A stretch of 64,000 nt of DNA from positions 10,352 through 74,351 of the forward strand of contig JAYTHE010000003.1 in NCBI GenBank assembly GCA_043732705.1, written 5' to 3'. Each line of letters starts with the position of its first letter. Position 1 is the first letter of the stretch. Of this stretch, positions 3,019-48,601 are shown piece by piece. A program made the position numbers and the translations under genes. The DNA is from Candidatus Omnitrophota bacterium (GTDB lineage: Bacteria; Omnitrophota; Omnitrophia; Omnitrophales; Aquincolibacteriaceae). The notes beneath the pieces were generated by a model, which was not told the DNA's origin, searched no databases, and saw nothing but the letters and a program-made list of their open reading frames with translations.

Positions 3019-6000
3019 TTATGCGGCGGAGGAAACAATTTGAAGGGTTTGCAGTATTTGTAAGATTTTCCCAGCCATACCAAGAAAACCTGCGCGCGTC
3101 ATCTTGTAACGCTTAATCGTGCCTATTGGCTTATTTTCTTCAAACCCTTCTAACTGCCTGCTTCCGGAAAATTCTGAAAATTTTGTTGCCTGTAAATTAA
3201 GCACTAATGCGCGCTTGTCCGGAGCAACCGAATCTAAATCCGCTCGATCAAAAGTAGATACTCCTTTGACATTGGATTTATCAAAAAAATCAGCCGGAAA
3301 AATATTCAGCTTATCTTCGCTTCCGACTAAACCATATTCCGCTCCACCGAAGAATCGAGCTGCCGCATCTTTCAAAACTCTCTGGGCTTTATCCGCTGAG
3401 CCTAAAATCTCAAATTTAATTCGTCCTGAATATTTTTTGGAACTCTCCGACATTTTCCAATTCTGATTCGCTGCGGCCAAAATAAGTATTTTGTGGTTGG
3501 GCTTAGCCTCAAGCACAGGCACCACATCTCGGAGGAATTCTTCTTCGGTTGGAAGTTTATCAAGAATCAACGCTGTATTAGCATGCTCTTCGCTTGCTAT
3601 GTCGGATCGACGAATCGCATCAATCACATTTCCATTTTCAGAGCGCAGCGCCACAATCTGCGCATATTCGTCAATTGTGGAGATTTGAATTGCTTGGCGC
3701 GCTTTGAGCGTATCTGCGTTAGCCTCTTTGCTTCCGAAATTAAAAATACCCCAAGCTAATAATACGGGGATCAATTTAAAAATCCCGCGCGCTTCGGATC
3801 TTTTAAGCGCATCGGGATTGAAACCTAATTGTATTTTCTCTATACCTGAAATTTGTGATCGTAATTCGGAACGATTTGCTTTTTCTTTAGCAACTTGAAC
3901 TGCGTTTTCAAGAAATTCAAACATTTTCATACCTTTTCCGAAAGCACCAATTATTCCAAGCGCGCCGGCCTTGGCTTTAATTTCATCAGTCAAATCGCCC
4001 GTATTAAGTATAAAACTTAATTTTTCATCCATTTTCATCCACTTTTCAATAAGCGCCCAGCCTTCTTCCCCTTCTCCAACATTCTCGCCGCCGCCAGGCG
4101 GCATATCTTTATCTGTCACAATAAGTGAATATTCCTGAAAACGCTTTTGCAAGTGTTTGTCAGCTTGTTCCGCCGCATCCTGTCCAACAATCAAAGTTAC
4201 ATGATCATCTCCCACAATCATTCTCAATATATCAGCAACTACTTCTCCATTTTGCTGCTTATCATCCACAACCATGATTCTATTTCGGGGGCTCTTTGCT
4301 TCGTCCGGCTTCTGAACCATTTCCTTATCGGGTTCTAAAGCCGAAATTTTTGCAATATGCTCTCCCAGCTCAATTAAAAATTCTTCGTAAATCTGTCCGG
4401 CTCCAGACTGCACTCCCAATTGCATAATTTTATCACTCAAAGCTTCGAATTCATTTCCAAGAGTTTTGAACCCGACTATTTTTTCTTCCGTTGTCATCTC
4501 GATTGAAAAAACAAGATGCGCTAATCGGCTTTTCACAATCATCATCAAGACTTGATAGACCGGACTATTTTTTTCTAAGTGACGCGCAACATCATAATGA
4601 TTATTCACTACCTGAATTAAGAAGCTTTTAAGATTGTCCAATGCGTCGGAGCGAATTTCGGAACGAACAGCGACTTTGGGATTACCGCGCGATTTGGCGC
4701 GGTCTTCAGCTGTCGCAATGCGGTTTTCCGATCGATTTTGTTGTCCGTCGTCTACTTTACTGCTTTCCGCAGCAGATGTTGATCTTAAAATAATAATATT
4801 CTGTCCGATTTTCTTTTCGACTGTAAAATTCTCTCCCAACTCATCTTCGAAAACTCCAACTGCCACAACGCGGATTACTCGCTCCGCTCCAGTTGCTCTT
4901 AATTGCCGCATCATGACGCCAAACGATCGATCCATGTTAGGACGAAAAACATAAAAAACCGTTCCGTCTTTAAAGGGATTTGGCCGCTGCGTGGTTGCTT
5001 CGTCTATATCTTGAAAGTCTCCCTTCCAGATTGCCATTTCTTTTAAATGAATGCGTTTTTCTTCCGCTATTTTTTTCAATGCTTCAATAATTTTTTTACT
5101 CAATTCAAATAATGCATCGTCTCTCTCCACCCCTTTTGCTGCTCCTGCTTGGGTTAATAATCCCGACAGCCAAACAACACGCCCATCACCTGAGCCTAAA
5201 TCATAAATAGTGTCTTCAGCACTTAGTTGGAGTTCATTCAAAATTGCTGCGACAGTTCTTAAAGGTGTACGCGCAAAATAAGCCTCTTCCTGCACGACCG
5301 CCTGTCCATAGTTTATCGGCTCAGGATTGATTTCTTTTGCGAGCTTAGCTAGTTCATTTAATTGATCTTCCAAAGCTCCCCACCCATCCGGAAGCTTACT
5401 ATTTATTTGCTCATTAAGAACGCTCGCAAATGCATCTATCCTTTTTCCCAACTCAGCTTTTTTCTGCTCCTTCACATCCCGCATTTCGGAACGGGATTTT
5501 GATTGAAAACGCGATAGTTTTTTGAATCCTAAAAATCCCGCCAACAGTGACATCGAAATTATCGCGTTAAAATAAAGCGGGGTTAAATCAATCGGCTGAT
5601 CCGATTGCCAAATTGCGGTGACCGCCAAACCCATTAATATGAATACGCTCGCTGACATCGAAAGAATAAATGCAATCCCGGCTGATTTCCCACGCTGAAT
5701 GCTTCTTTTTTCACGGCCACTCAAAGCAACTACCACAGCCGCAATGCCCGCCAAAATCAAAGGCAAGCGGGAAAACTCTTCAAACAGGGTTTTAGCAAGA
5801 ACAGGCTCTGCCGCTTGGGGTTCGGGGAAGACTTCAGCCGCAACAAATAACTTCGATTCTGCTGTTTTAGAAAAATTGCTGCGCCTCAACATCGCAACTG
5901 CCACCCTTGTTTTCTTTGAATTGTCAGCGTCAATCTTTGCCTGTGCTTTTTCTCTTTTGGTTGCGGCTTCGGGAGTCTCGTTTTTAGGAGCACGGATTAT

Positions 6001-9000
6001 TTTTATACGGTAATGGTTTGCGTAAAAATTGAGCGCCCGCGCTTCAATCTTTGCCGCGTTGAGAGGATCTTTCTCATCACCCACTAAATCAGGAATATTC
6101 GCGAGAAATGAGGCGTCATCCTTCGAATTCTTCCAAATTTGACGGAAGACAAGTGTCATCATAAATGTCAAATCCAGCTTTTCGTTATTGAGGATTTTTT
6201 TAGCAAGCCATGGGCCGATGATATCCATCGCTTTTGTTTCATTGTTGGGCGCTTGGGCTTTAAGCGTGTCAACCAACTCTTTAATTTCATCTGCCTTCAA
6301 GCCAAGGCCTTCCGCGATCTCGGAGTGCAGATGATTGAGCACGGTTGACCGTATGTCCGATCCTTTGAAATTGTTATAATAAAACCAAGTAAAAAGATGG
6401 TCTTGACCAACGCGGCTGCCTTCTTTTCCCGTTTCAATTTGTCCCCACCCCACAGCGATGAATTGCTCGATGAAATTTTTAATACGCTGGTTCTTGAGCC
6501 AATAGCCTGATTCATTCGCAACAATGATCTGTCCAAGCCGAATTAAACTTTCACGTTTATTTTCTTTTTCTTCTTCCGCAATATTCATTTCATTAAAAAT
6601 CGGGTCGAGAATTTCATTCAAAATTTTACGGGCTTCAGCCGGACTAAAACGATTCGTTTCTTTTTGCTGCGCTTCTTGATCCTTCGTGAGTCGGACAATC
6701 TGTTTTGGCACAACCTCCGGAGCTTCGTTTAAAATTTTAAGAACATTCGGACTTTTGATTTTCTTTAATTTCGCGGGATCAAGCATATTTGCGGGAGCCA
6801 TTTTTAATTCTGGTGTAGTTAATTTTGCGATCGCCTCTAGTGGACCTGCCAACGCGATGGTTCCCGCGGTTACGATTTGCCCTAAGAAGCCGCGCCTATT
6901 TCGTATTTCGGAGCGTCTAACTGCCGGCTGCGTAGGAGCGGCGAGTTCGGCGTCAAATTCGCGCCTAAAAAGTTCCACTATTTCATGTCGTGAAGATTTA
7001 AGGTCATTCCCTTCCTTCAAAATAGTCTGATTAAGATCCATATAAAGCTGCGGCAATCCCGCCCATGAAAAATAATGGCCTGAAAAATTCCCAACATCAG
7101 CGTTTCTGAAATAGGATGAAAAAATTTCAGGAAATTTCTTTCCAAGCATCTCTTTTAATTCTAATCGACGGCCCGATTCAACCGATCCGAATTTGGGCGA
7201 ATCATAAGGATTCTCAAGCATTTTTTGAAAAATCATGATACTAAAAATCAATGATTCAAAATTTTTGATTAAATAAGCCAGTCGGTCATCAGGCGATAAT
7301 TCAGAAAGCGCAGTCGTTCCTTCATAATCTTTAAGGCGCGGCCGCCCATTTTCATAAACAAAATTATTATTTGTCGGTTGTCCATGTTTAGCAAAAGCAT
7401 TGAGGTCACGTAAACTTCCGGCGTATTCACCGAGACGCAAAGACAACCAGTCTGTTAACTCGATGGAATCTTTCGTTTCTGCGGCTTTTTCCGCTACCAT
7501 CGAATAAAGGCTGGTTTCGTCCTGTCCTTCCAAGAGCTCAATAAAGTAGCCGACTTCAATCGTATGAGTTCCCGACTTATCACGATAGGAAAAATTTTTA
7601 TTCGTAAATTTACCAAAGCCAACCGGAGGAGCCACAAGCAGTTTGTTTTTTTGAGCAAGCTTTGCTCCGTGAAACCGACTCTCAGCATAGATCGCTTCAC
7701 TTGAGCCTGCAGGGTGTGGCGGAATATCAATCCAGTGAATGACTCCGTCTCGAGGCGCAAGCAATACTTCGGATTGGCTATTAGCTCTAAAATCAAGCGG
7801 CGGAATATCTTTATCAGCGGAAATTAAAACTCCGATTATTTTCGCAGATTCATACTTTCTGCCTTCAATTTCAACCGGCCGGATCAAAGGCAAAATCACA
7901 GTTCGGTGATCATCCCAATCACCAACGGTGTGCGCACGGCCATTTGAAAAATTCCCGCCCTGCTTTAAAATATACATAATTCTGTCTTGGTCCACTGCTA
8001 ATTTGTCCCAAATATCGCCATCAACATAAAATTCACTGGTTAATGGCGCTGACGGCCCATCAATCACAATTGTCCGCATTTCGCCTGCCTGCCGGCGAGG
8101 CAGGGAGCGCGCAGTCTTTGGAACCGCAATAATCAATTTTGATGCTTTAACAAAAGAACTATATTCGGGGTAGTCTGCTGGTAAATCTTGAATAGAAACA
8201 TCAAACCCCGCGTTTTGAATAGCGGCCATGATTCCATTTTGTCTGCTATCAATCACATCATTGCTCTCAACGGTGACAAGTAAAATGCCTCCCGGATTTT
8301 TTAAAAGTTCCAAAGCGCGATTTGCAAGCTCACCAGGGGCCGTCTCAATATTATTAATAGTTACAATCTCAACAGGATGTTTCTTTAATTCTAAAAACTC
8401 GGATTCAAATTGCGCGTTTGCCTTGATGATTCTTTTACGGACATTTTCATTAATCGGAGTAGCTTCATCAGGATAAGGTTCAGTTGCCTTCCAACCTTTT
8501 ACTTTATAACCCCTGTCCCTCAGATATTTTTCGAATTCCGGCGGAAAAGCTCCCGCCCCGGTGTCCAAATCAATAAATTCAAGCTCTGCTCCGGCAGAGA
8601 GACGCTGACTCAAAAGATCCGCAAGAGTTCGCATTTCGGAGCGTTTAACTGAAGGAATAAGCGGAACCGGGTTAAATTTTAAAGGTTTCGCGTTTAAGTA
8701 GTCACTTAACGCCAAATTACTTTCTATTTGAATCTCGTTTGGAGCTAACCGGGGGAAACCTAGAGTTACAGCATCCGGTTTCATCCAAAAAACATCTAGG
8801 GTTACTCTCAAGCGAGCATCTTGCGGCAGTTGGTGGATATTTTCTTCTCCCACGATTTTCTTTAATCGCAAAAGAATATAATCGGTCAAAAGTTTAATAT
8901 CAGAGTTTACTTTTTGTTTGAATATATTTACCTCTTCGGCCTGCATTCCAAAAGGCGCGTAGACATCATAGGTCTTTTCCGCCCCACGCACCTCATTGCC

Positions 9001-12000
9001 CTTGCGATTTGCAAACATCGCGTTGCCGCCAATGCGCGTAAACGAAAAATCTTGTATAAGATCAGAAGGCACACCTGTTTTTATTTCAATTTCGCCATTG
9101 TGCGGGTTAAGTGAAATAAAATAGCGGGTCTCCAAACTTCGAGGACGGCCTTCTTTTTCGACCTTAAAAAGGTCGAGCATCTCTTCAATCATTCCGGCAT
9201 CGTTGAGACTGCTGCTTATTTTTTCCCAAATCGTATAAAGAGCATTAGCGGCATTTTCATAACTGTGAGTTTCAATCTTAATTTCAAGCAGCCCTTGATC
9301 GGGCAAACGGGTGACTGCAACGCCCGGAATCTTCTCAATGGCCTGAGGAATAATTGTGGCCCAATCAATTCTCCGAGACACATCTTTCTCCGGCTGATAA
9401 GCCATGCTAACTTTTAAATGGTCTGCATCTTCTCTTTCAATAAAGAAAATGCCTTCGCCGCCTGCACCGCCATTGGGTTTAAATACAAGCGGGAGCTTTC
9501 GATTTCCACTCACAATCTCTCGCGCAAGACTTTTAAAATTTAAAAGATTTTCACCAGGAATGAGCTGCCGTTTTAAAACTTTAAATACGTCGCTTTCTCT
9601 TTTCGCAAGCTGTTGTGGAGCCTGTATGCCCGCAAAGAACTTAACGCCCTCAATCGGCGCACCTTTCATCATTTCTCGCACTCCCAACTTCGTAAACAAA
9701 ACATTAAAAAGATTTTGCAAAGAAATTGGATTTTGCCGCATTTCGGAGCGAGCAACTTTAGACTCGAGGGAATTGAACTCTCCAACACTCTCGAGTCTCC
9801 GGTCTTCGGCTTCCGGGCTTTCGATTTTGCGCGATTCCTGTCTGCCGGCAGGCATGGCAAAACGAAGAGGGGCCAATCCAGTTTGAAATACCGCAAGCAT
9901 CAATTGGAAAAGCGAATTAGGCGCGCCTTGCCCGGATGCAGCTAATCTTCTATCCACAAAAAATTTGCCGGCCCTGAGCAAACCCAATATACCCGTTAAA
10001 ACACCCAATGTGGTTATCCAGGGAAAAGCCGCGAAAACTGCAGCAAGTGCGCTCGCAACTCCTGCCACACCAATAACAACGAAAGCAAGAGCGGTCGGAA
10101 TACTTATCGAACGGTTCTCTGATCGATGATTGCCCGGCTCTTTCAAATTTGCAGCGACACCTATCGAGCGCAATTCATCACGCCCCTCATCATTTAACTT
10201 TCCACCTTTTGAAAGAAAGTCTTTCAAGCTCATCACGACGGGTTTTGATCCGGGCACTCTCTGAAAGATTCGTTCGGCCGATTTAATATTTTTTAAACTT
10301 TGCGGCTTTTGCAAGCGAATCACAATTTGATTAACTTGTACCAACTGAGGCAATCCATTTTTTACCTCCGTTCCATCCGATCGTCGTCGGGCTCTTCTCG
10401 CCTCAATATAACTATCCCAATTTTTTAAAGTTTTTACGTTTTTAAAGTTTTTAAGCATTGATTTCAGGCGCAATTCTGACTTTGTTCTGTCGTCTAAGTG
10501 AAATTCCAACATAATTTCCGGGTTGACTCCTTCGGGCGTACCTGCTGGAACCTCAAAGCGTTTTAAAAGTGCTGCAAGTGTGGGAAACCCCTGCTTTTTC
10601 AAGAATGCCGAGAGTTTCAACTGTCTTTCTTTCGAACCCGGCTCAAAATCAAATACAAGTGGTTCCGGCCATTTCAGTTTTTCCGCGGAACTTACCTTCT
10701 CAATGCTCTCGCCCTGCTTCCGCATTTCGGAGCGGGCCATTTCAGGCCCGAGACCCAAGGCCCGAGACCCGAGGGTTTCAAGTCTTGCATCACCGAACGC
10801 CGTCCCGGCGGGAGGGGTTAGATCTGCATGGGCCTCAAAAAGCTTTGAAAGGTTATGTGCCAAAGCAAAGGTGTCTAGGAAATTCTCGAACCCGGGGTTT
10901 TCGTAATCCTTTTCTAGATAGAGCGCCTTATCTTTCGTCAGATCAACTTGTTTACGTAATGCTGTCAAATCCGCCAGCAATTTTTCCTGGCCCGTTTCAA
11001 ACGGCAAACCGTGAGAAAAATTTTCTCGGGCTTTCTGATTGTATTTCAGCGTTGCTTCGAAAGAATAAAATAAATATTTCATTATGACCGGCACAACATA
11101 CCCATCAACAAAGTGTCCTTCATGCTGAAACCAATCAAATTCATTCAAAATGAGCATCAAGGTAAGCTGTTCATGCTCATCCGCTGAAAAAACTTGAAGC
11201 GCCTCAAAAAGTGGCACCATCGTTTTTTTCAGATAGGATTGCTTGAGGGCTTCAAGCACAACGTCGCCTCCCTCCTGTGCGCCTAAAAAAATTTCCAATG
11301 CCGCGTAATAATCCATATATTTTGAGCTGTGAACATAGTCCGTCCCCATAATTTCTTTTGTAAAGAATTCCGTCATAGCCTCATTGATGGTTGAATTGTA
11401 ATAATCAAAGGAATGATGCAGCGCCTCGTGAAGCAAGACCGACCTTACCTTTTTGGCATCGCGCGTTAACATGACCTCTTCCCTGATACGAATTTCTCCG
11501 TTTCGTATATCGTAGTCTCCATTAATGTCATCTAAGCTTCTCCACACACCTATTTGGGAAATATCAATTTTGTTCGCCGCACCCTTAAAGTAACTTTTTA
11601 ATTTTTGATTGACCCATCGCACGTGAACATCCAACACTGCGGCATAAGCAGCAGTAACATTTTCGGGGGGCTGTTTGGCTTCAACTGCCGGTTCATTTTT
11701 TGAAGACGCTACATCAGCTAACAAAAGTCCCGCTGACAACGCCTCTGCATACAAATGCTTCTGGATCTCGATCCCAGACAAATTTGTCCATTTCTCAGGA
11801 TCTAATCTTGCCGCGGCCACGGCTTCAGCTTCTACCAGAGCCATATAATGCTTAACGCCTGTTATATTGATGCGAAATTCGGAGCGGCCGGTATCCCCAT
11901 CTTCCGCGGATTTCGGTTCTCTGTAAGGGTTTAGTCGAATGATTCTTCTGATAACGTCTGTCTTAAGCTTACTAATTTGTCCCGCGGCTTTCGGGGTTTC

Positions 12001-16791: not shown

Positions 16792-16943
16792 AAGTTGTTT
16801 TCTTAAAAAAATATAACCTTAAGGACTCTGTATTGGAAACGCAGCGGATGAAATGATCATTATTGCTATGTTTTGATCTTGCGAATTGATGTTTTTTTGA
16901 TTAAAATTCGCCCAAAAGCTGTCCTTTGTGACAGCCGGTGAAA

Positions 16944-17837: not shown

Positions 17838-17919
17838 GCCCCGAGGGTTTTAAGTTTTAAGCTAACAGCTAACTACTCAATAACCTCGTGCCTCCGGTCT
17901 CCGAACTCCGAACTAGTTT

Positions 17920-33353: not shown

Positions 33354-33454
33354 AGAACTTACCTATCAGTTTTTAAGCTGACTGCGGTTGCGCTTCAGCG
33401 CAGAGCTTAAATGTGACTCATGCAGTTGAGCCGAAAGGCTCAGAGCAGAAACAA

Positions 33455-34759: not shown

Positions 34760-34803
34760 CCGGACATTATAGAGGACGAACCCATATCCATGGGTTTTAT
34801 TTT

Positions 34804-34846
34804 CACCCTAACCTTGTACACATCGGATGTGTACAAGGTTAGGGTG
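34804..34846. repeat. Family-B palindromic element, intergenic between the helicase and giant gene 3.
   Basis: The perfect 39-bp palindrome ccctaaccttgtacacatcggatgtgtacaaggttaggg. Confidence 0.75.
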
Positions 34847-34881
34847 GGGACAATTTACAGGTTTGAGGAGGAATAAAAAAG

Positions 34882-34897
34882 AGAGTCGGAAAAGCGG
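34882..34897 (-). terminator. Possible terminator hairpin downstream of giant gene 3.
   Basis: A stem aaaagc/gctttt with a 4-nt loop. On the minus strand a T-rich run (ctctttttta) follows after a short spacer. The stem is short, so confidence is low. Confidence 0.35.
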
Positions 34898-34921
34898 CGG
34901 CTTTTTATTAAATGGGAATGC

Positions 34922-40900: not shown

Positions 40901-43900
40901 ATTACGCATTAATACACTCAGGTCGGAAACATTTTGCTTATGATCCAAACTTGCTCTTAATACCATTTTTTCAAAACTCCATTCATCCTCCGCAGGCGCC
41001 ACAACGCGAAACCCTAGTTTTTTAAAAACCCTGGCAATCAATTTCATGCGCAAATGATTACCCACTTTCGCACCCCCTTCAAAATAAACAAACTCTGAAT
41101 TACCTCCCATCTCGAGCGGAACTAAATTGGCATAAGCTTGCATTCGATGAACCCCGAGAGTTTTTCGCATCCAAAAATTTGTTCCCTTAAGGAGAATGCT
41201 TAAGTCGTTTGACTGTGTCACGCCGGGACTTTTCAAATTTTTCAATATCGCTTCCGGTAAAATCTTTGTCGCTAATGAAGGTTCGCCGGTGGCAACATGA
41301 TCAAGGTCTAAAAAGCTCCATTTTCCATCATGATTGATTTTGAGAACAGAATGCTCAACATAAGAATGCATCCAATTAATGAATTTATTGAGTGTGTCCA
41401 CTTTGCTTAACCCCTTTTCGGACTCAGCAGCGGTCCAAATACCACGCATACGGTCAAAGAAAACCGTGATGCTGCCGCCTCTTCCGGAGCGGACTAACTG
41501 ATATTGCGCCTCTAAGTCAGTCCATCGCTCCCTGACTCCGACAAGATCGGCTGAAGTCATCCCTTCGAAGCTTAAGAATATTTTCACGAGCATATCAAAG
41601 TTGCGCATAAACTCATCCGCTTCCGCTTGCTTCCAGCGCGAGACCGAAGCAAGCTTGATCAAAACCTCATTATGATATTTACGAAATTGATCCAAGCGAT
41701 CCGCATTATGGGTTAATTTTTGAAATTCGCCCTTGAATTGAATGGGATAATTCGCAGGCAAAATATCTTTAACTTCAATTTCATTATCCTCATGGACATG
41801 CTCAGACCCCAGTACCAAACGCAGCTTTTCCGAGGCTGCGGAATGGATGACAAGCGATATATCAGCAGAAAAATTTGCCAAAACCTTAGGGAAATCACGG
41901 CTTTCCGAACGCATGCTGGCTTTTGGATTTTGCGGCGCCGAGCGCGCTTCGGAACGTGGGGTCGGAGCTGTAGTTTCAAAGAGTGGGTTTGAAAGCTTGC
42001 TCATCTCCACCGTAGTATTTCGCAGCATTTGTTCGAAATGCTGCCGCTTAACATCAGAAGACACATCTTTCGCCAAGCGCGCGGTTAATTGCCGTTCTAA
42101 CTCTTTCGTTGTTTTAAAAAGTGTCCACCGTAGAAATGTTTTTCCATCCGTCAATTTTTCAAAAAGGGGTATTTGCTCGCGCAGCGAGGCTTCCAACTTT
42201 TCCCAGGCAATTTTTTGTTTTTGTTTTTCTTCTATCGCTTCTGTCGGAACAGTCCCGGAAGACAACTCGCCTCCAAGTGCAGCGATTTGAGCAATGGCTT
42301 TTTGGCGCAATTTTTCCAATCCAACCAGAGTAAGATCTTGAATCACATCAGGGTGAGGATCTTTTTTATCAGGAAAACCCCAAAGCTTCAGTCCGGTTAC
42401 ATACCCCTTTTCATCGCGTAAATTATAAGTGAGAATAATTCCAAGATCTTCATAACCGGGCGACATTTCTCCGTCAATATTTAAAATTCCCGAACCAAAT
42501 GAGGGAAAAAGCACAAAAGGCGACATCTGCTTATTAGGAAATTTGCTTTGTTCATTATGTCCCATAATAATAAAACCGTTGGGAGACCGATCCACAAATG
42601 AGCCGGCGGTGTGCCCCATCAACCATCCTATTTGGCCATGATCAGCAAATTTTTTTACCATATCCACTTTGGCATGCAGCAATTTATCGGAGTACCAACT
42701 CGTAATCTCTTCAAAAGCAGGCCCCAAAACATTCCAAAGGGCCCTCCTAAAAGCCATCCGTTCTGACTTACTGCCTGTAATATATTTTTCAATATCTGCA
42801 TCGCTGAGACCTTCAAAGTAGGTGCGAATATCACGTGTCATCAGTTCCAACGCCGCCAACCCTGTTTGCCCTCGGTACTTAACATTAAATTGACCCTGTT
42901 CATCAATCGGGATCATGTTATGTAAATGCAAATTGTTATAAATATCCAGATAGAAAAGACGGAAATTCCGAAGCTGATTGATCGCGCTATAAACAATCTC
43001 ACGGTCGGTGTCATAGTTCCCCAAGGTCAGCGGGGTAAAATTCTCAAAGCCGGGAAGATCGGCATATGTTTCGCGCAAAGTAACAATTTGTCGTTGATAG
43101 GCATCCATTTTTCCGCGAATCATTTTCGAAGTTTCTTCAAAAATATTTATATTGGGTAAATATGCCGGCTTAGGAATAGGATTGGGCGCACGCTTAGCAA
43201 GCAAAGCGGCTTCTTTTTCAGCGGCCATGGCGCCTTGCCATTTTTGGCGCAATTTTGAATTATGCGCCTTGATTCGTTTTAACTCCGGTTTTAAATCTTG
43301 CCGCACTTTAGCTAAGTCAATAAATTCAAAGCTTTCTGCCGCGCCAAAAGTCCTTAGCCGCTGATTAATATCTTTAACTATTTTATTAAAACGCCTTTGA
43401 TTCAATTGATCCAACTCAACGTCTCCCCAGTCAGCATGGTGGAAGGCTTCACGCAGCCAAAACCCAACATGATGTCCTGTGTGTTCCTCGGAATATAAAT
43501 CAATATCCGGGAATAATTTATGGATGCCAAGCGCACTCAACGCACGGTACTCATCATGATTGCCAAGCAAAAATCTTGCGATTGAGGTATGCACCATTTC
43601 GTCGATCAGCTCAATCGATCCCACAGGATCAGGGCCACGATCAGGCGCATCGCTAAAACCAATAATTCGCCCGAGAAATTTTTCGAGCGATAATCCTTTT
43701 TCATCCAGCTGTTCTTTTAAATCATTCAATATGTGGATGCGGGCGTAGCTATCCGCCGGGAGCCCATAAACAAAAGCAAGCAAGGCTAACGCCCGCCTTG
43801 TGCCTCCATGCAAATCCTGCATCGCGGCAACAACTGGAATATTTCCGCGACCGGGCTTGCCATCTTTTTCTAAGCCATCCAGCTCTTTTGTAATTTCATC

Positions 43901-46900
43901 CGCTAATCCCCGCAGTTCAAGAATGTTTTTTTCTGTGGGGTCCAAATCAAAAATCAGGTCGCCGGCTGTTCGAATAAATTGATTATGAAGAATCGTATAA
44001 CGATGCTCTAAGTCGGCCATTTTTGAACTGATTTTCTGGAAAAAGGCGGGCGATAAAGGCTCATGAGAAGCTCGTTCCTCCGGGCTAAGCGCGTCTATCC
44101 AACCATCGATGAATTGCACTACCGGCCCGGCAATATCTTGAAATACCACACGTACATATTTTGCACGCTCCTCGATTGAGACTTGCTCCAAACCGTATTG
44201 GTGATAAATCTTTCTCGCTTGAATTTCCCGCCGGGTTTGAAAAGGGTCTGTAGTGTCTTCCTTCAATGAGTCCGCGCCATGCTCACGATTCCACGATTGA
44301 ATCTCCGCGATCGCGTCATCGACACGTAATTCGGAACGCTTGGTGGCTTCAATGATGAAATGGTCGCCCGCGCCCGTAAGGGTGACATGCTCATTTTCCA
44401 GACGTTTTTTCACATCCTCGAGCAATTCCAATTCTTGCCCGGGATTTAAATTCTTTGTTGAAACGGTTGTAATTCGATTTTCTGATCGCGAGGGAATGGC
44501 TTTTTCGTTTCGAACTTCCGCGCGAAAAGACCGCGCTTCTTCCGGATTGATAAATCCTTTGGGGATTAGCCGTCGTGAGCGCACATCAAATTCATAATTG
44601 CGCAGCTTTGGCTGAACCTTGCTTTCTCTGTATTCATAAGCCGCAACCACCTGTTTCAAAGCATCTGAGATTTGCAACCCCGGAAGCAAGCCTTCCTCCG
44701 CCAATCTTAAAACAACCGACAGATTGTAATATCCCTTCAAATTGAACCAAACAGGTTGCCCTTTTTGGTCCGTAATGCCTTGCACAGTAATCCGTTTTGG
44801 TTTTTTTGGATTATCGAATTGAATAGCAATGGCGGCTCCGTTTTGTATGCTCGAATCAACTATTAACGTCGGAATCGCTTTTAATCTTGCATTGGCTTGT
44901 CTTGAGCGAGACCAGCGGTGACCGTCGTAATACTCGACTTTAAGCGGCGAGGCAGAACGAAATTTAAAACCGGCATCATCATGATTCACTTCGACTGTCT
45001 CGTCCTCTCCATAATTTGCTGTCACTTTTTTGTCAACCTGCTCATCAAAAGCTCGAAATTCTCCCGAAGCCTCTGCAAGACGCAGCTGATAGCCTTTCCG
45101 CAAAGGCTTTCCTGCTTCATCTGTTATTTTAATTCGAATTTTTTCGCCTTCTTTTTCAGTTTTTAAATATGTATCAAAATATTCCAAAATAAAATAAAGC
45201 TCGGGATTTTTCTTGTAACGCAGCATCACCCAGCGCGGCTGAGTTGCACGATCAACTATCATTTCAAAATCTTGCGGATGCTTCATGTAATATCCGGGTA
45301 AATAAAGCCTTCCCAAAAACTGAACATATCCATCACGTTTGGAATCTGATATTTTTCTAATTAATTTACGGTTCACTCGGCTCAGCGCGTCTAAATGCTC
45401 TTTTATTTTTTGGTGACGGCCAATCCCAGCGGCAAGAGGAATTCCAAAAAGGTCATCATAAAATGCTCGGAAGGCCGGCTGAAAATAAAGTGGCGTGTTT
45501 TGCTTCATTTTCCCATCTGGATTATAAATGTTCATTTTGCTTACGATCGCAGGCAAGTCTTTTGGTTTATAACGAAAATAAAACAAATTCTTTTTTTGAT
45601 CGATGTTGATTGAAAAAAATTTCGTCGGGTCATCCAGGCTCACCAGACGAACTTCTGTCTGACTGGAAATGGTCTCATTTCGAGCGCCTAATTCGAGTCG
45701 CAGTTTAGCGTGTAGGGCGCGCGGCAAAACAAAATGCGCTTTTTGTAGCAATGTAATTTCTCGAGAAATCACATTGTTTTTTGCTATGCCACGCGTTTCG
45801 GAGCGGGCCGACGATGGAAGGTCCTCGGCATAGTGGATTGCAGTACGCGGCAAATACACTTCGCCGGATGTAAACTCAGCCTTCACGGCAAACGTGGTGC
45901 CGCCAACCGAGGGCAGAAGAACATAAACATCATCGCCTGCCAAAATAAATTTATCGAGATCGAGCGTGCCCCCAATTTCAAAAAACCTTCCGTTGCTTAC
46001 CCTTACGCTTCCCAAATCACTCCTCTTTTTTTTCCGCCCCGCAACAACACGAACAGGGTCATTCTCCGTCAAAAGCTTTAAATCCTTTAAGCTAACGCCT
46101 CGGGACAAAGCCATGGCAATAATGTCACGCAAGCGCACGGCGCGTACCGAATCAGAAACTTGAAAACGCAATGCCGGCATCTTGTTCAGTTCTGTTTTTT
46201 CTAATGAACCCGCTTGCCTTGCCTTTAAGTACCGGAAATACGAGTTCCAACTATGGTATGGCCAAACTCCATCTCGTTTTGCTTTCCAAAATTGACGCGG
46301 AAAATAAAAAATAATTGCTGCCGTTAAAACCAACCAGGTAAATATCGCGCTTATGAATCCACTGACCGAGGCGAGCTTTTTATTTAATAATTCCACCCGA
46401 GGCATTCTTGCTATCAACGAAGCGCCAAACCCAGGCGCTTGGGGCTGCCCCGCTTCTTTTAAATCCCGCATTTCAGAGCGAACTTGATTGAGTGGCGCAA
46501 GCTGCGCGTTGTTAAAACGCATACGAAGTTCCGAGCGCCCTTTAAATATTCCGGCACTCGTGGCAAGCGCGGCTGTGACGTGGGAGTCATTGGAAACCAT
46601 CGAGGTCAGTCCACGCTGCTTGGTTCGACTTTGCTCACCACGAGTCGCATCAAGCCTGCCGGCAGGCAGGCTTGGGACAGACCCCTCTCCCAGCAAAGCA
46701 CGGCGGTAATGCGCGCGATCATCCTCGGTGATTTTTGAGATGCGCGGCATCACTTCAACATACGCGTATTGATTTTTTTGCGCAAACTCACGCATACCAT
46801 CGCTGTGAAAACCACCCGTGACAATAACCTCTATACGCCTCTGGCGTGGGCCGTGGCTCGTGGCAAAAGATTCGCTGAAATAATTGTTTAAGTTCTTGGT

Positions 46901-48601
46901 GAATGATCGTTCACGAGCAATCGCACCTTGATAAAACTGAATGGCATTGTCGTAAGTTTTTTCTAAATCAGAAAAAGAACCGCTACGCACACTCCCGGTG
47001 ATAGGCTGAGGCTCAATACCGGAAGTGTTCTGAAAGACCGCTTCTAACTGCTGCACAACCTCAGATGGTTTGAAGCTGTTTTCTGTCGTTGGTCTTCGGT
47101 CGTCAGTCGTTAGTCGTTTTTCTATTTTTTTAAATTCCGAGCGGCTTAGTTCCAAATGAAGCAATTTATGAAGCAGAATATATTTTTCAAGCACCTTGAT
47201 AAGTTTTATACCTTTATCTATTTCCAAATGGTCATTCCCGCGAGGGCGGGAATCTAGCCCTAAATGTTTCTGGATTCCCGCCTTCGCGGGAATGACAGAG
47301 GCCGCTTCTTTCACAATCTGCGCGTGCATTTTCTCGGCTTCTTTTTGCAATTCAACGGCATCCATTTCTCCACTCAAAATAATTTGAGCAATCCATGCTT
47401 TCAGTTCCGGCCACTTATCCATCGAAAAATTGTTTGGCAAATAAACCGCAAGCCGCTCAAAAACTTCGCGGGCGGCAGAAAAATCAGCGGGAGCTTCGGG
47501 GTCAATTCCGCGGGTTTTAGCTTTTTCGATTAGATTGTCGATTTCTATGAGAATCGCCTTAAGCGACGAAGCACCACGCTGCGCCCCCTCGGGGGATGCC
47601 ACGGGCAACCCCCGAGGAGTCTGCGCTTCAAGTCGTCGGTCTCTAGTCTCTGGTCTCTGGTCCAGACTTTTTAAAGTTTCTAAAAAGTCTAGTTTTTGTT
47701 TTTCTATTTTTGAAAAGTCGGCCGCACGCGCCAAATTTTTAAGATGGTAATACCGCACAAGCATCGGAAATTCGATTTGTTCGTGAATATCCGCAAGATC
47801 ACGCTTCCACACAGAATCAGCATATTGTTGAATCGCATTGAACCATTCCGCTGATTCCACCGCGTCAAGGCGGCTCCTAGCATAAGCTTCCAGATATTTT
47901 TTAAGTGAAGGACTGAGAAAATGAATCGCGGCATCTTGCCAGCGCGAAAAGAAAGATCTTAAAAAAGCCCGGCTTTCCGTAAGTGCGGAATCAACTTTGC
48001 GGTATTGCTCGACATTGTCCCAGTAAGCCGCAGCGTCTTCGATTCCATACCCTTTTACATTTTTTGATTTCATTAGAAATGTTTCCGCGCCGGTTAAGTC
48101 GCCATCGCGCATCCACGCATTACGTTCCGTCGCAGTCAGTTTTTTACCCCCGGGGAAAAAATGATGCAGGTCAGGATCGAGCTCTCCCGTCCCGCCTTCT
48201 AAATATATTTCATGAATCCCACCTTGAGATTGCATTTCGCTAAGCATGTTCTGAATATTCTGCTGAGCATCCAAAACAGCGTGCGCATCTTGAATGTGAA
48301 CCAGAGTACCGTGTGAATTTTTCGGAACAACTTTCTCGGTCACCGTACCAAACCGGGCGCTTGGTTTCCATGTTTCAAAAACTGAGACTTCCGGCGATGA
48401 CTCCGCAAAGGAAAGCACCGCTGCTTGCGCTGTGTCCGGAGTTAACACCTGCGTGAGCACATATAGAGGTATCAGCGCGATGGCCCCAAATTTACGGTAT
48501 TTGCGAGGAAGATTAAACATTTTATAGAAGATAACCGACTTACTTTTTTTTTCAAGTGCTACACAAGCAGGAAAGTGAACATTTTTTAAATAGAAAACCA
48601 C
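34922..48601 (-). CDS. Giant secreted multidomain protein (4559 aa, or 4532 aa from the internal Met at 48520), giant protein 3.
   Basis: A continuous 13.7 kb ORF. The internal Met gives MFNLPRKYRKFGAIALIPLYVLTQVLTPDTAQA, a better signal peptide than the first Met. It shares the IQDAH / GGFHSDG N-terminal module. It carries a PPP-family metallophosphatase domain, a PEP-utilizers swivel domain plus a PPDK_N ATP-grasp domain, and about 12 R-S-E-x-R motifs. The C-terminal tail is conserved with giant protein 1. Confidence 0.85.
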   Translation of the reverse strand: MVFYLKNVHFPACVALEKKSKSVIFYKMFNLPRKYRKFGAIALIPLYVLTQVLTPDTAQAAVLSFAESSPEVSVFETWKPSARFGTVTEKVVPKNSHGTLVHIQDAHAVLDAQQNIQNMLSEMQSQGGIHEIYLEGGTGELDPDLHHFFPGGKKLTATERNAWMRDGDLTGAETFLMKSKNVKGYGIEDAAAYWDNVEQYRKVDSALTESRAFLRSFFSRWQDAAIHFLSPSLKKYLEAYARSRLDAVESAEWFNAIQQYADSVWKRDLADIHEQIEFPMLVRYYHLKNLARAADFSKIEKQKLDFLETLKSLDQRPETRDRRLEAQTPRGLPVASPEGAQRGASSLKAILIEIDNLIEKAKTRGIDPEAPADFSAAREVFERLAVYLPNNFSMDKWPELKAWIAQIILSGEMDAVELQKEAEKMHAQIVKEAASVIPAKAGIQKHLGLDSRPRGNDHLEIDKGIKLIKVLEKYILLHKLLHLELSRSEFKKIEKRLTTDDRRPTTENSFKPSEVVQQLEAVFQNTSGIEPQPITGSVRSGSFSDLEKTYDNAIQFYQGAIARERSFTKNLNNYFSESFATSHGPRQRRIEVIVTGGFHSDGMREFAQKNQYAYVEVMPRISKITEDDRAHYRRALLGEGSVPSLPAGRLDATRGEQSRTKQRGLTSMVSNDSHVTAALATSAGIFKGRSELRMRFNNAQLAPLNQVRSEMRDLKEAGQPQAPGFGASLIARMPRVELLNKKLASVSGFISAIFTWLVLTAAIIFYFPRQFWKAKRDGVWPYHSWNSYFRYLKARQAGSLEKTELNKMPALRFQVSDSVRAVRLRDIIAMALSRGVSLKDLKLLTENDPVRVVAGRKKKRSDLGSVRVSNGRFFEIGGTLDLDKFILAGDDVYVLLPSVGGTTFAVKAEFTSGEVYLPRTAIHYAEDLPSSARSETRGIAKNNVISREITLLQKAHFVLPRALHAKLRLELGARNETISSQTEVRLVSLDDPTKFFSINIDQKKNLFYFRYKPKDLPAIVSKMNIYNPDGKMKQNTPLYFQPAFRAFYDDLFGIPLAAGIGRHQKIKEHLDALSRVNRKLIRKISDSKRDGYVQFLGRLYLPGYYMKHPQDFEMIVDRATQPRWVMLRYKKNPELYFILEYFDTYLKTEKEGEKIRIKITDEAGKPLRKGYQLRLAEASGEFRAFDEQVDKKVTANYGEDETVEVNHDDAGFKFRSASPLKVEYYDGHRWSRSRQANARLKAIPTLIVDSSIQNGAAIAIQFDNPKKPKRITVQGITDQKGQPVWFNLKGYYNLSVVLRLAEEGLLPGLQISDALKQVVAAYEYRESKVQPKLRNYEFDVRSRRLIPKGFINPEEARSFRAEVRNEKAIPSRSENRITTVSTKNLNPGQELELLEDVKKRLENEHVTLTGAGDHFIIEATKRSELRVDDAIAEIQSWNREHGADSLKEDTTDPFQTRREIQARKIYHQYGLEQVSIEERAKYVRVVFQDIAGPVVQFIDGWIDALSPEERASHEPLSPAFFQKISSKMADLEHRYTILHNQFIRTAGDLIFDLDPTEKNILELRGLADEITKELDGLEKDGKPGRGNIPVVAAMQDLHGGTRRALALLAFVYGLPADSYARIHILNDLKEQLDEKGLSLEKFLGRIIGFSDAPDRGPDPVGSIELIDEMVHTSIARFLLGNHDEYRALSALGIHKLFPDIDLYSEEHTGHHVGFWLREAFHHADWGDVELDQLNQRRFNKIVKDINQRLRTFGAAESFEFIDLAKVRQDLKPELKRIKAHNSKLRQKWQGAMAAEKEAALLAKRAPNPIPKPAYLPNINIFEETSKMIRGKMDAYQRQIVTLRETYADLPGFENFTPLTLGNYDTDREIVYSAINQLRNFRLFYLDIYNNLHLHNMIPIDEQGQFNVKYRGQTGLAALELMTRDIRTYFEGLSDADIEKYITGSKSERMAFRRALWNVLGPAFEEITSWYSDKLLHAKVDMVKKFADHGQIGWLMGHTAGSFVDRSPNGFIIMGHNEQSKFPNKQMSPFVLFPSFGSGILNIDGEMSPGYEDLGIILTYNLRDEKGYVTGLKLWGFPDKKDPHPDVIQDLTLVGLEKLRQKAIAQIAALGGELSSGTVPTEAIEEKQKQKIAWEKLEASLREQIPLFEKLTDGKTFLRWTLFKTTKELERQLTARLAKDVSSDVKRQHFEQMLRNTTVEMSKLSNPLFETTAPTPRSEARSAPQNPKASMRSESRDFPKVLANFSADISLVIHSAASEKLRLVLGSEHVHEDNEIEVKDILPANYPIQFKGEFQKLTHNADRLDQFRKYHNEVLIKLASVSRWKQAEADEFMRNFDMLVKIFLSFEGMTSADLVGVRERWTDLEAQYQLVRSGRGGSITVFFDRMRGIWTAAESEKGLSKVDTLNKFINWMHSYVEHSVLKINHDGKWSFLDLDHVATGEPSLATKILPEAILKNLKSPGVTQSNDLSILLKGTNFWMRKTLGVHRMQAYANLVPLEMGGNSEFVYFEGGAKVGNHLRMKLIARVFKKLGFRVVAPAEDEWSFEKMVLRASLDHKQNVSDLSVLMRNTKIAMDMLLRIVNTDQALRDLAESYSKDELDQIIEAWSQKIILTAGKVTPIDIPMNYTKSSAGEDDTAAVPQKIVVSKGKFWESPEPYDDAQNVEFRENGKKIHSALQSTLAALGLEAMPEYDSAVFGQIFIETFFNSVVSRTVNAGRIIQGAHGYEINPHYIASSPIRNFVETWQDLSKRENLIQMGQMVSNTTFRLKHIGLIGQAMVYSAEVSLITGTIEVVLVRSADKKSLLAGGIWSQGQLLTPDAASILLSRSNIEIHVSKSQPGDYARLADNLEMEFRTPAEGSIYTGEAIQGFGFLPGTATGPIRFSEGAQEGDILYVSTLNEGNINLLRMANGVISEVGNKLDHFNTRAKHFGKPRVQVSHAVLKPSSGGGAALEISGKIVDRAENFQGYPLIQAVTDGENIRIEEGDLVTINGTTGMIHWLGKDPVVLEAYHTISSIEKAATASELEKQIQKLIEIISRAVQAKNILLVKFILRQIIFDGTLLSPAHKRGSLAQLFQSGEGKYFEQLKNLLSPADDELREGIKAYLKTLYRHAKGQILRDFSRAREAVGVVARLDQIYYEIRRLRTEVAAFQAVQSFLGEIVLGEPGIDLNSKQESVFGEIQKTIRHLKAQLEERVSEIIEQNKKHPFNQETYFLLARILERVAAFEKLGIRLEKINQKQVAKLKKDAVQIQKQRRARRDALRKKRLIALSDTGIDYYEITGNKGANLGWLNHFVDWYNGQKKNKSMRLSVALGYAVTAHAFNEFLDQTVMGQGPKAQTLRAYVKSVLADRLLSIKEKSQKIEEAFLAQELPQEMSEEISRVVSGGLWAVRSSTKLEDTPRSSAAGLFATNLGATTPALVEKYLRQTWASLYGEPSLSYLWDADPADFFDLLKDEGAVIQQLISADTSGVISSVEISSDDRGFMVINAGYGLGQAIVDADQDADAIVVDKVTKIPQIFPGEKRKKTIVDGKGATMNVETTPEERNTVSLSRAQIAELTDITLALEEWFGYVVQVEFAIKDSVIYLLQIRPIPGFKVPKKERPALAKWAGMIASQEPFKKQRSEARSNQKLEVAESHVGRMSRENFNGESFSHENFNWKSVLGLAAAGLTGLGLALSGAWIPALFISAAAVYFGASFIPPSQGSLTRSGYPVFDSIRGAIDHLKIGFRAASNSPSRSEIRTPAESVKYLYGQWEDLERQNVIIQAKVAYPGVLTNEEGFNQIWKRTSGYGKGVEFSLEHSATDLRQEFQRLSQKGDITPDDLGGLLGKVESHKRRLDVLSAHLMVTDVMTAERRNQSYVIFEAAQAYTNFWKKVITELQQHLKMPADKLYARQGIQAAGFVFELMLGGRMDLAGENERLIEELEAELERVTNDNLPKNTLKILQDLINRRWEFTAFAENPEEMRARHAYLDELKTFAAQTYIMVLSSEQKLSTAQASLAPLLNIMIKIHDYAFAASNDWPTDWNHDRQGLKESLGYVLEQMQKKYRSESRDDTGSLSQRAEIRVQTMLEGSKRIFDESDHWIKTEDLNGNLVDDLIWEAGKIVRVRTRMADGSFIVLDSNGDGVVHSAEIEEGPVFIDWQPGINLNDIQHIPFAEITNEPSPKGSAPSVFRIMALLLMDQKKTSVAYWGNEGAVQAPTDRLFNSLAETMLPQAEVSIDDLSHFVNMQRRGFAQTSGLADYMADELGVLRMKFQIYPRDVKWVPHPFERIFFQTQKGLASIDVRGGKAQRLYYDDEVYLAPQFLFGTLDFHAQRHTIREEDGVFKAYVEDEHVLTVDKTGKVLFERSEMRLEKKVEVKATARSEHRAIEPVVVPKNKIIALKIMAARLFADGILSVKDAVYYLKHHEEFLAVLPLLVSTEQKKQNLAHLTGMLGVDIQVKDGIVLSPALVREGFLAAAKEVFEGVPFALIASGSEKIKAVQWIQTNKLTERIFVAENIREARVWLTRHGVTRIQGMALAGEEALPDFDELIRFTTGQLQKFYDRAGILGEVQHLARIFSVFASAA
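38000..38800 (-). other. PPDK_N / PEP-synthase-type ATP-grasp (PEP/pyruvate-binding) domain inside giant protein 3.
   Basis: ITGNKGANLGWL matches GGKGANL. WAVRSSTKLEDTPRSSAAGLF matches the [20 protein letters not shown] signature. SGVISSVEI...VINAGYGLGQAIVDAD matches SGV.FT.DP...NA.WGLGE.VVsG. Confidence 0.65.
39700..39900 (-). other. PEP-utilizing-enzyme mobile (swivel phospho-His) domain-like segment inside giant protein 3.
   Basis: GNKLDHFNTRAKHFGKPRVQVSH aligns with the GGRTSHAAIVARELGIPAVVG signature, with the His conserved. It is followed by DGENIRIEEGDLVTINGTTGMI, which resembles kdGdlvtvDGstGeV. Confidence 0.5.
43400..43900 (-). other. PPP-family (ApaH/PrpA-like) metallophosphatase domain inside giant protein 3.
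   Basis: Motifs appear in the canonical order: AAMQDLHGG (DxHG), FSDAPDRGPDPVGSIE (GDxxDRGpd) and LLGNHDEYR (GNH[DE]). GNHDE is encoded at about 43546..43560. Confidence 0.6.
47231..47296. repeat. Two family-A palindromic repeats in opposite orientation, in-frame in giant gene 3.
   Basis: gtcattcccgcgagggcgggaatc (47231..47254) and ggattcccgccttcgcgggaatgac (47272..47296). They translate as …VIPAKAGIQKHLGLDSRPRGNDH…. Confidence 0.75.

Follow-up and report, generated by a model that had tools for sequence, protein, structure and literature searches.

In the polyproteins of picornaviruses, potyviruses and flaviviruses, a single open reading frame (ORF) holds many units, a strict and compact motif lies in the linkers at their boundaries, the consensus of that motif varies from lineage to lineage, and a domain with a hydrolase fold is part of the chain. 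The same traits recur in the family of three giant ORFs (G1, G2 and G3) on the minus strand of a 64-kb stretch of DNA, hereafter the window, a segment of a bacterial chromosome (45% G+C) that belongs to Candidatus Omnitrophota, judging by the names on homologues and related contigs. Here the motif is the pentapeptide R-S-E-x-R (RSExR), encoded by 15 nucleotides (nt). The giants part from the viral case in being cellular chromosomal genes set among housekeeping genes, in the variable metabolic, regulatory and membrane cargo they carry, and in having junctions that are also recombination breakpoints, with homogenization of nucleotides. They differ also in that their cleavage is something I only infer.

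Other systems share part of this picture. The MARTX toxins of Vibrio are likewise giants with conserved ends and with central effector modules that are shuffled between strains, the modules being released by proteolysis, and one MARTX effector, RRSP, has a Tiki-like fold in common with the N-terminal domain of the Omnitrophota giants. However, MARTX toxins are cut after leucine in variable linkers rather than at a fixed pentapeptide, Pfam finds neither RTX repeats nor a C80 cysteine protease domain in G1-G3, and the cargo of the giants consists largely of housekeeping-type enzymes, not toxins. In polymorphic toxins, a short peptide (VENN in CdiA, PxxxxDPxGL in Rhs/YD proteins) divides the constant part from exchangeable cassettes, the DNA that encodes it is a recombination junction, and in Rhs the peptide is a site of autoproteolysis as well. 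The giants too have a junction of both peptide and DNA at exchangeable cassettes, with breakpoints exactly at the motif, but a CdiA or Rhs protein has one junction, one C-terminal toxin and an adjacent immunity gene, whereas the giants have up to 33 junctions, cargo other than toxins and no immunity-like neighbours. With integron cassette arrays they have in common the ordered, exchangeable, gene-sized cassettes, the short conserved core sites and the rapid turnover. Integron cassettes, though, are separate ORFs joined by attC hairpins of 57-141 bp near the intI integrase gene, whereas those of the giants are fused in frame within one ORF, the 15-nt element between them contains no inverted repeat, and there is no integrase among the genes of the window. 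Of all these, the closest to the junction system in its working would seem to be the viral type of polyprotein, in which a fixed cleavage motif separates the mature proteins.

Giant proteins from this phylum are the subject of two preprints. One describes 'multi-enzyme metabolic cluster' giants with a membrane-anchored multi-enzyme architecture (Nielsen & Lui 2026, 10.64898/2026.06.07.730766), and the other, on Archaeovorin/Dockerin-type giants, suggests post-translational cleavage and states that the cleavage points are unknown (West-Roberts et al. 2023, 10.1101/2023.11.21.568195). Those giants and the ones in the window come from the same phylum, are alike ORFs with multiple Pfam families and have a membrane anchor or signal peptide, but at 3.4-4.6 thousand amino acids (kAA) the latter fall below the 10 kAA on which both preprints focus. 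The junction motif, the cleavage points and the shared N-terminal domain appear in neither preprint, and full-text literature searches for the motif, for polyproteins and for cleavage sites in Omnitrophota turned up no prior description of the motif.

I propose that RSExR marks the boundaries between the units of these chains. That it is the junction signal of giants built from cassettes seems to me very likely, and it is also the point at which cassettes are exchanged in frame. The explanation that best accounts for the whole, with a probability of roughly 0.55, is that the giants are polyproteins in which each junction is both an endopeptidase site and a point of in-frame cassette exchange.

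Six-frame translation of the window gives 19 copies of RSExR in G1, 2 in G2 and 12 in G3, the numbers at which an earlier note on this DNA had arrived approximately. From composition one would expect 0.09, 0.05 and 0.09, or about 0.23 to set against the 33 observed, so the note was right to put chance at well under one copy. All of the residues it had listed at x (M, S, I, N, F, A, L, V, T and H) occur, and so do the close pairs it had remarked on, for example RSEMRKEVGLRARSESR (12202-12252) and RSEARSAPQNPKASMRSESR (41897-41956), gaps of 12-24 amino acids (aa) being recurrent. The span it had assigned to the motif, 3019-48601, is simply the extent of the three ORFs. G3 contains two RAExR variants besides. 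No RSExR was found in any real gene of the window other than the giants; outside them the string appears in an antisense frame at 4647 and, out of frame, as RSEDR near stop codons at 53870. At the level of DNA, CGNTCNGAR-NNN-CGN has 29 matches in the window, all in frame 0 of the coding strand of the giants and none elsewhere.

A search with G1 matched 78 giants of 2,500-7,800 aa, one of them (P0001) 100% identical to G1, and these together with G2 and G3 make up the family of 80 proteins treated below. The 78 have no more in common than their first 550-690 residues, which correspond to 13-16% of the query. After this N-terminal domain (N-domain), their Pfam content is very diverse: CMP and adenylate kinases, phosphofructokinase, acetate kinase, phosphoglucomutase, glutamate dehydrogenase, glucose-6-phosphate isomerase, methyltransferases, receivers, trypsin-like peptidases and more. 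In the giants of the window, the matches are DOT1, SprT-like, PPDK_N and PEP-utilizers only. The 80 proteins contain 560 copies of RSExR versus 8 expected, while scrambled controls stay at chance (RES.R 7 versus 8 expected, SRE.R 3 versus 8, KSE.K 6 versus 6.8). Scanning one position at a time gives the consensus R-[S>A>P]-E-[V,A,M,L,S,T,I]-R. Arginine is required at both ends, lysine not being tolerated; glutamate is strict, with aspartate weakly accepted; alanine takes the place of serine in 176 copies (12 expected) and proline is accepted there also; and D, P, R, W and C do not occur at x. The flanks hold about 0 bits, small residues being slightly favoured at -1 to -3 and acidic residues after the motif. 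Thus the longer consensus that the earlier note had thought to look for by aligning them was not found, and flanks without information mark RSExR as a short linear motif, not a piece of a repeated fold. In the 80 loci that were fetched, the giants have 1.68 motifs per 1000 aa, while 406 ordinary ORFs (117,305 aa) have a single motif, versus 3.0 expected. The few other ORFs that bear motifs are mostly large or end-truncated, and several are fragments of neighbouring giants. Among species-representative genomes the shared N-domain is encoded at no fewer than 538 loci. Of the 80 loci listed, all those whose record has a name are from Omnitrophota, and the family of giants with junction motifs is confined to Candidatus Omnitrophota.

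The motifs divide the giants into pieces of ordinary-protein size, the median segment between them being 296 aa. The first follows some 550-690 aa of N-terminal sequence, and the last leaves some 220-320 aa up to the end of the protein. Every giant consists of a Sec-type signal peptide or anchor helix and the N-domain, a first junction, cassettes, a last junction and a C-terminal domain (C-domain) that ends in -[AS]A. Cassettes number from one to more than 30 per giant and are gene-sized and mostly unrelated to each other (enzymes, membrane proteins, orphans). One giant (P0039) has a receiver domain (2222-2342) that takes up exactly the space between RSETR at 2213 and RSETR at 2350, and the Pfam matches to glutamate dehydrogenase, methyltransferase and trypsin-like peptidase each lie within a single segment. 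Homologues of the methyltransferase cassette of G1 are mostly stand-alone proteins of 200-320 aa. Within the G1 cargo at aa 3298-4335, this cassette alone has relatives among 1.84 billion representatives, the rest, including one cassette that begins with a signal peptide of the twin-arginine translocation (Tat) type, being orphans. AlphaFold assigns a predicted local distance difference test score (pLDDT) below 50 to the surroundings of the first and last junctions of G1.

When the cargo of different giants is compared, the breaks in homology fall on the motif itself. Blocks of homology start within 2 aa of the first arginine in 21% of cases, versus 1.6% with randomised motif positions, and 24% of blocks cross a motif, versus 55% at random. 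In one pair of giants (P0003/P0004) an 82%-identical block ends on a motif and a 75%-identical block starts on a motif, with unrelated cassettes between them. In two other pairs (P0059/P0060 and P0017/P0018) shared modules begin at +0 of motifs, and those of P0059/P0060 are not colinear, their order being different in the two proteins. The turnover of cargo is fast: N-domains that are 55-60% identical are followed by unrelated cassettes.

Hydrophobic, signal-like stretches begin within 50 residues after 8.5% of junctions, compared with 3.3% of random positions and 1.9% before junctions, and many of them are textbook Sec signals (e.g., RSEVR-GKTAAFLLAIGLALANAVA, followed by DP). Tat-type signals come after junctions at least 14 times, where 1.5 are expected; one has a lipobox (RSEVR...SRRDFVTTAFVAAGFVALTGC), and the window provides an example in RSEIR-NRRGFLGQIVTAGTIALAGPLEAIA (6817-6915). 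The twin arginines stand 1-18 residues past the motif, spaced as they would be from a native N-terminus. Since Sec and Tat signals act at or near a free N-terminus, such cassettes look like whole captured pre-proteins, which would need a new N-terminus at the junction.

Diverged members of the family have the same architecture without RSExR, and they over-use other strings at their junctions: RxEMR in P0056 and P0041, and R[A/P/T]ELR in P0046. A sister clade (P0058, P0072 and P0047) employs [A/G]SLG, with about 10 copies versus 0.1-0.22 expected, at gene-sized spacing, the first copy coming right after the N-domain and one copy preceding a Tat signal. A site that changes with lineage while the architecture is constant is what co-evolution with a recognising enzyme predicts. 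Written out more fully, the string of the sister clade is [A/G/Q]-[A/S]-S-L-G; these proteins have zero copies of RSExR and the same N-domain and architecture. Another member, P0077, may use GARL (6 copies versus 0.15 expected).

The mechanism I have in mind is that the pentapeptide, lying in disordered linkers, would be the recognition site of a dedicated endopeptidase, which would cut the giant into separate proteins in the manner of a polyprotein. Cleavage would free the signal peptides (Sec, Tat and lipoprotein) that lie behind many junctions, and the same 15 nt mark the places where giants differ by in-frame replacement or rearrangement of cassettes. Proteolytic cleavage at the junctions I regard as an even bet. 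A larger and more tentative view, less likely than not, would have a cellular polyprotein system, each genome carrying dozens of ordinary enzymes, exported proteins and membrane proteins in the form of in-frame cassettes within giant ORFs. A dedicated protease would release them at the five-residue junction, and recombination at its 15 nt would add, remove and shuffle them, much as if an integron lay within the ORF, with dialects that co-evolve with the machinery. The earlier note had suggested the recognition site of a processing protease, and that suggestion fits best, if on indirect grounds: the compact motif in a disordered context, the gene-sized modules, the signals after junctions, the dialects and the hydrolase fold of the N-domain speak for it, although a protease to match was not found.

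As the enzyme, the N-domain is the one candidate that every giant contains. It shares the alpha/beta fold of the Tiki/TraB/PrgY/ChaN/erythromycin-esterase superfamily, and its invariant residues are Q80, H83, E111, G112, R571, G594, G595 and H597 in G1 numbering. Of these, H83, E111-G112, R571 and G594-G595-x-H597 recall the paired catalytic His/Glu/Arg/His motifs of that superfamily, GxxH...E...R...GxxH, and they are retained in the [AG]SLG clade. A profile of the domain has no significant sequence match in PDB, and Pfam matches are below threshold, 2 of 28 members weakly matching Cofac_haem_bdg (ChaN, of the Tiki superfamily) with E=0.011. Because the superfamily holds proteases (Tiki, RRSP) but also proteins that are not proteases, it is rather doubtful that the N-domain is the junction protease. 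The HExxH or trypsin-like modules within the cargo are other candidates: HExxH occurs 45 times in the cargo of the family versus 8.1 expected (5.5-fold), in 30 of the 80 giants, and trypsin-like modules are found in some giants. The C-domain was rejected as a protease, having a generic Rossmann-like fold only; its alignment with BLAST and jackhmmer has a mean column identity of 16%, the terminal alanine being the sole invariant column. A co-located protease operon was rejected as well, for the genes adjoining the giants are housekeeping genes that differ between loci. In the window they include those for a ROK kinase, a pyrophosphatase, a pseudouridine synthase, BipA, a DEAD-box helicase, FeoB, UvrB, NadC, ValRS and others. 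Neither in the window nor in the related loci is there a conserved protease or recombinase neighbour, and the co-encoded protease that the earlier note had advised seeking was not found among the neighbouring genes.

The nucleotides of the junctions tell a story of their own. The earlier note had seen a codon bias in the motif, and it is real: in the 33 copies of the window, serine is always TCN (33/33, background 64%) and is TCC in 19 (background 13%, p=3e-9), the first arginine is CGC in 17 (p=5e-4) and glutamate is GAA in 31 (p=5e-4). Across the 80 independent loci, 86% of motifs have CGC or CGT for the first arginine (background 42%) and 55% have TCC for serine (background 20%), AGY being nearly absent. 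Bias extends to the codon that precedes the motif and to that of x, and the flanks are at background. Arg-Ser and Ser-Glu dipeptides outside motifs have background codons, so this is not codon-pair bias. Nor is there covariation in the stem of the CCGC/GCGG mini-hairpin, mutual information being 0.03-0.04, inside the null range. Beyond this general bias, copies within one gene share codons specific to that gene despite their unrelated flanks (among-gene heterogeneity p=4e-12 and p=2e-9), the codons so homogenised being those for glutamate and the last arginine. At locus L020, for example, GAG is used in 11/11 and AGR in 9/11, at L029 CGC in 11/11, and at L001 GAA in 21/22. Differences between lineages are synonymous or exchange serine and alanine, so the amino acids are constant over the long term while the nucleotides are homogenised locally. 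Homogenised codons, exact breakpoints and fast turnover of cargo suggest together that the addition or exchange of a cassette involves copying or recombination of the junction, and the junction codons may have a role at the level of RNA or tRNA.

A number of points weigh against the giants as polyproteins. Cleavage itself is what I infer, along with the acting enzyme, the scissile bond and the DNA mechanism of cassette exchange. The analysis found no protease whose specificity is known to match, esterases (Ere) and a haem-binding protein (ChaN) belong to the Tiki superfamily too, and G2 and G3 are without HExxH modules. The N-terminal signal of Sec type would export the chain, whereas the Tat signals and the cytoplasmic-type enzymes of the cargo argue for release in the cytoplasm. 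The signal peptides behind junctions could be relics of recently captured genes, without function. Finally, cleavage does not explain the CGY-TCC constraint on the first arginine and serine, nor the homogenization of glutamate and last-arginine codons within genes.

A kinase or modification site was another of the possibilities in the earlier note. If the chain is not cut, the motif could be a site of docking or modification, repeated in every linker, at which serine is phosphorylated or a chaperone, secretion factor or scaffold binds, and the giant would be so many enzymes on a string. RSExR does have the properties of such a short linear motif (compact, strict, in a disordered context), serine is favoured at position 2, a membrane-anchored multi-enzyme architecture has been published for Omnitrophota giants, and no protease has been proven. 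But serine can be replaced by alanine, by proline and, in RxEMR, by anything, and the unrelated [AG]SLG serves instead in the sister clade, which argues against phosphoserine chemistry; and intact Sec, Tat and lipoprotein signals after junctions make little sense in an uncut chain. A docking or modification site I consider unlikely. It is quite improbable, too, that the signal is primarily one of DNA, the junction being a 15-nt core site for insertion or exchange of cassettes in frame, an integron inside an ORF, and the conserved peptide a by-product. Such a site would go well with the breakpoints, the site-specific synonymous bias beyond codon-pair context, the gene-specific codons and the unrelated cargo behind similar N-domains. 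It goes badly with lineage differences that are synonymous (GAA/GAG, CGG/AGG, TCC/TCG) or conservative (Ser/Ala), with a last arginine that uses all six codons, with an x confined to small or aliphatic residues, with a motif in frame 0 only, and with the lack of conserved flanks, inverted repeats, covariation and, next to the giants, a recombinase. What survives of the insertion or recombination signature that the earlier note had offered is the position of the breakpoints, exactly on the motif, and the homogenised codons of each gene; the persistence of the amino acids across lineages, the unconserved flanks and the lack of any link to the palindromic families count against the remainder. A pure DNA repeat is ruled out by the unrelated flanks and the occurrence in frame 0 alone.

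Separate chains might arise with no protease at all, from an event in translation at the junction, either internal initiation at the x codon or a skip of the 2A kind. The x codon is indeed biased towards RYG (ATG 70, GTG 40 and TTG 11 of 355 sites), the constraint on the two codons before it suggests that tRNA or RNA is involved, and x-Arg resembles the Met-Arg start of many signal peptides. Still, about 37% of x codons specify alanine, serine or threonine and are unable to initiate, sequences like that of Shine and Dalgarno are depleted upstream (21 sites versus 73 in the control window), there is no R-S-stop-x-R variant or stop between long ORFs, and known skipping and stalling peptides are far longer than five residues, all of which makes a translational event very improbable. 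The glutamate codon was also considered as a mutated stop, with R-S-stop-M-R lying between separate genes, and no such case exists between long ORFs in 1.28 Mb. Least credible of all, to the point that I give it almost no weight, is that RSExR is an artefact of composition, a remnant of palindromic repeats, or belongs to a folded domain that recurs, as does the R(S/T/N)E(L/V)R motif of PL7 alginate lyases. Palindromic families do exist in the window, and the literature matches for RSELR and RSEVR are papers on PL7. However, chance and composition are ruled out by the expected counts, the scrambled motifs and the ordinary ORFs, which lack the density of motifs that the earlier note had said would reveal an artefact. 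Pfam shows no alginate lyase or other repeated domain in G1-G3. The palindromic families (D1, D3/D5 and D6), of which the note had thought the copies might be remnants and nothing more, differ in sequence and are located elsewhere, coming no nearer than about 370 nt to a motif, and the flanks of the motifs are unrelated. It is the direct-repeat families, D2, D4, D8 and D10, about 15 nt long, that are the motif sites themselves.

Table 1. Giant ORFs of the window, their domains and cargo, and every junction, with window coordinates.
Feature	Position in protein (aa)	Coordinates	Strand	Remarks
Giant ORF G1		3019..16791	-	4590 aa; signal peptide, N-domain, ~18 cargo segments, C-domain
G1 N-domain	1-635	14887..16791	-	N-terminal hydrophobic helix, then Tiki/TraB/ChaN/Ere-like fold
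RSESR, G1	674	14758..14772	-	first junction, directly after N-domain; within stretch 636-675 of pLDDT<50
RSESR, G1	723	14611..14625	-	
RSEMR, G1	925	14005..14019	-	
RSESR, G1	1222	13114..13128	-	
RSESR, G1	1255	13015..13029	-	
RSESR, G1	1350	12730..12744	-	
RSEMR, G1	1514	12238..12252	-	
RSESR, G1	1526	12202..12216	-	
RSEFR, G1	1636	11872..11886	-	
HEALH (HExxH) in G1 cargo	1788-1792	11416..11430	-	segment aa 1641-2019; weak SprT-like metallopeptidase match; candidate cargo protease
RSEMR, G1	2020	10720..10734	-	
RSENR, G1	2223	10111..10125	-	
Hydrophobic transmembrane- or signal-like stretch, G1	2227-2260	10012..10113	-	directly after junction aa 2223
RSEMR, G1	2348	9736..9750	-	
RSEMR, G1	2717	8629..8643	-	
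RSEIR, G1	3293	6901..6915	-	
Tat-type signal peptide NRRGFLGQIVTAGTIALAGPLEAIA, G1		6817..6900	-	begins 1 residue past RSEIR junction (6901..6915)
RSEMR, G1	3767	5479..5493	-	
G1 cargo cassette	3772-4019	4735..5478	-	248 aa; class I S-adenosylmethionine methyltransferase; Pfam DOT1 at 3845-3930
RSENR, G1	4020	4720..4734	-	
RSEIR, G1	4043	4651..4665	-	
RSELR, G1	4307	3859..3873	-	
RSEAR, G1	4331	3787..3801	-	last junction ahead of C-domain
G1 C-domain	4336-4590	3019..3786	-	Rossmann-like alpha/beta core and long terminal helix; C-terminus -SSAA
Giant ORF G2		22983..33083	-	3366 aa; minimal form: N-domain, RSEVR, one 2489-aa cargo, RSEFR, C-domain
G2 N-terminal segment	1-684	31032..33083	-	up to first junction; holds conserved N-domain (IIQDAH ... 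GGFH at aa 462)
RSEVR, G2	685	31017..31031	-	first junction
RSEFR, G2	3174	23550..23564	-	
G2 C-domain		22983..23549	-	C-terminus -STQA
Giant ORF G3		34922..48601	-	4559 aa; PEP-utilizers and PPDK_N both in segment aa 2236-3616
G3 N-domain	1-688	46538..48601	-	HIQDAH ... GGFH
RSELR, G3	689	46523..46537	-	first junction
RSEMR, G3	708	46466..46480	-	
RSETR, G3	933	45791..45805	-	
Variant RAEVR, G3	1360	44510..44524	-	
RSENR, G3	1372	44474..44488	-	
RSELR, G3	1422	44324..44338	-	
RSEAR, G3	2216	41942..41956	-	
RSESR, G3	2231	41897..41911	-	
RSEAR, G3	3617	37739..37753	-	29 aa past end of PPDK_N match
RSEIR, G3	3731	37397..37411	-	
RSESR, G3	4041	36467..36481	-	
Variant RAEIR, G3	4054	36428..36442	-	
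RSEMR, G3	4340	35570..35584	-	
RSEHR, G3	4356	35522..35536	-	last junction ahead of C-domain
G3 C-domain		34922..35521	-	C-terminus -ASAA

Some other features of the giants deserve mention. They often come in same-strand tandem arrays, like that of the three in the window, and at four loci (L011, L054, L064 and L071) there are same-strand upstream ORFs of 2,600-3,300 aa with 3-9 junction motifs each. The GTG start assigned to G3 at 48601 is probably too far upstream (48520-48601); a start at the methionine that is residue 28 (MFNLPRKYRKFGAIALIPLYVL...) yields an N-terminus with a normal signal peptide, as in other members of the family. Just upstream of G3 and on the same strand lies a gene for a PAS-SpoIIE (PP2C-type) phosphatase (49986-51158), G3 being transcribed downstream of it. 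Within G3, at 37826-39947, one cassette of 1,381 aa has a PEP-utilizers mobile domain (aa 2885-2992) before a PPDK_N ATP-binding domain (aa 3276-3588), and the usual order of these domains in phosphoenolpyruvate synthase and pyruvate phosphate dikinase is the opposite. Complete giants have C-termini of the form -[A/S]-A after a long amphipathic helix, as seen in 62 of the 80 members (-SSAA, -STQA and -ASAA in the window, and -QAA, -KSA or -IAA, for example, in others), and these resemble the tails recognised in the manner of ssrA or by Tsp and ClpX; in the window they are encoded at 3022-3033 (G1), 22986-22997 (G2) and 34925-34936 (G3).

The repeats of the window also reach into coding sequence. 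A palindromic repeat of about 30 nt, AACCTTGTACACATCGGATGTGTACAAGGTT, occurs at 15408-15468 in a loop of the G1 N-domain, at 63211-63269 in valS and at 34805-34840 between genes. It is in frame both in the N-domain and in the anticodon-binding domain of valyl-tRNA synthetase, encoding NPVHIGCVQG in each, and at that site the Pfam match of valS is about 20 residues longer than the profile. Two more short families lie in frame in N-domain loops (15144-15180, 15219-15263 and 15828-15872 in G1, 47263-47299 in G3) and have intergenic copies at 1127, 52419, 54039, 58339 and 58377. One of these, the hairpin GGATTCCCGCCTGCGCGGGAATGAC, appears to match the peptide ...VIPAQAGIQ..., and the other ...LKVKSQNHNSK.... 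Both insertions coincide with AlphaFold loops of low pLDDT or lower confidence (about aa 303-328 and 515-543), and homologues in other genomes have the same peptide strings in their N-domains.

Giant ORFs are characteristic of Omnitrophota, and the motif gives them boundaries that are explicit and can be tested. From it one can predict the places at which proteomes should show new termini, it allows the giants to be split for structure prediction and annotation, and it defines a family across the phylum whose members share a single frame, with a Tiki-like N-domain at one end, a C-domain at the other and cassettes between them. The homogenization of nucleotides at the junctions is a separate puzzle, one that may point to the mechanism of exchange. 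If the junctions are indeed cut, then this would be, to my knowledge, a new case in which the strategy of viral polyproteins serves the cellular enzymes of a bacterium, coupled to the exchange of cassettes in frame, and it would bear on how gene expression is organised, and how new gene content is acquired, in ultra-small, host-dependent cells.

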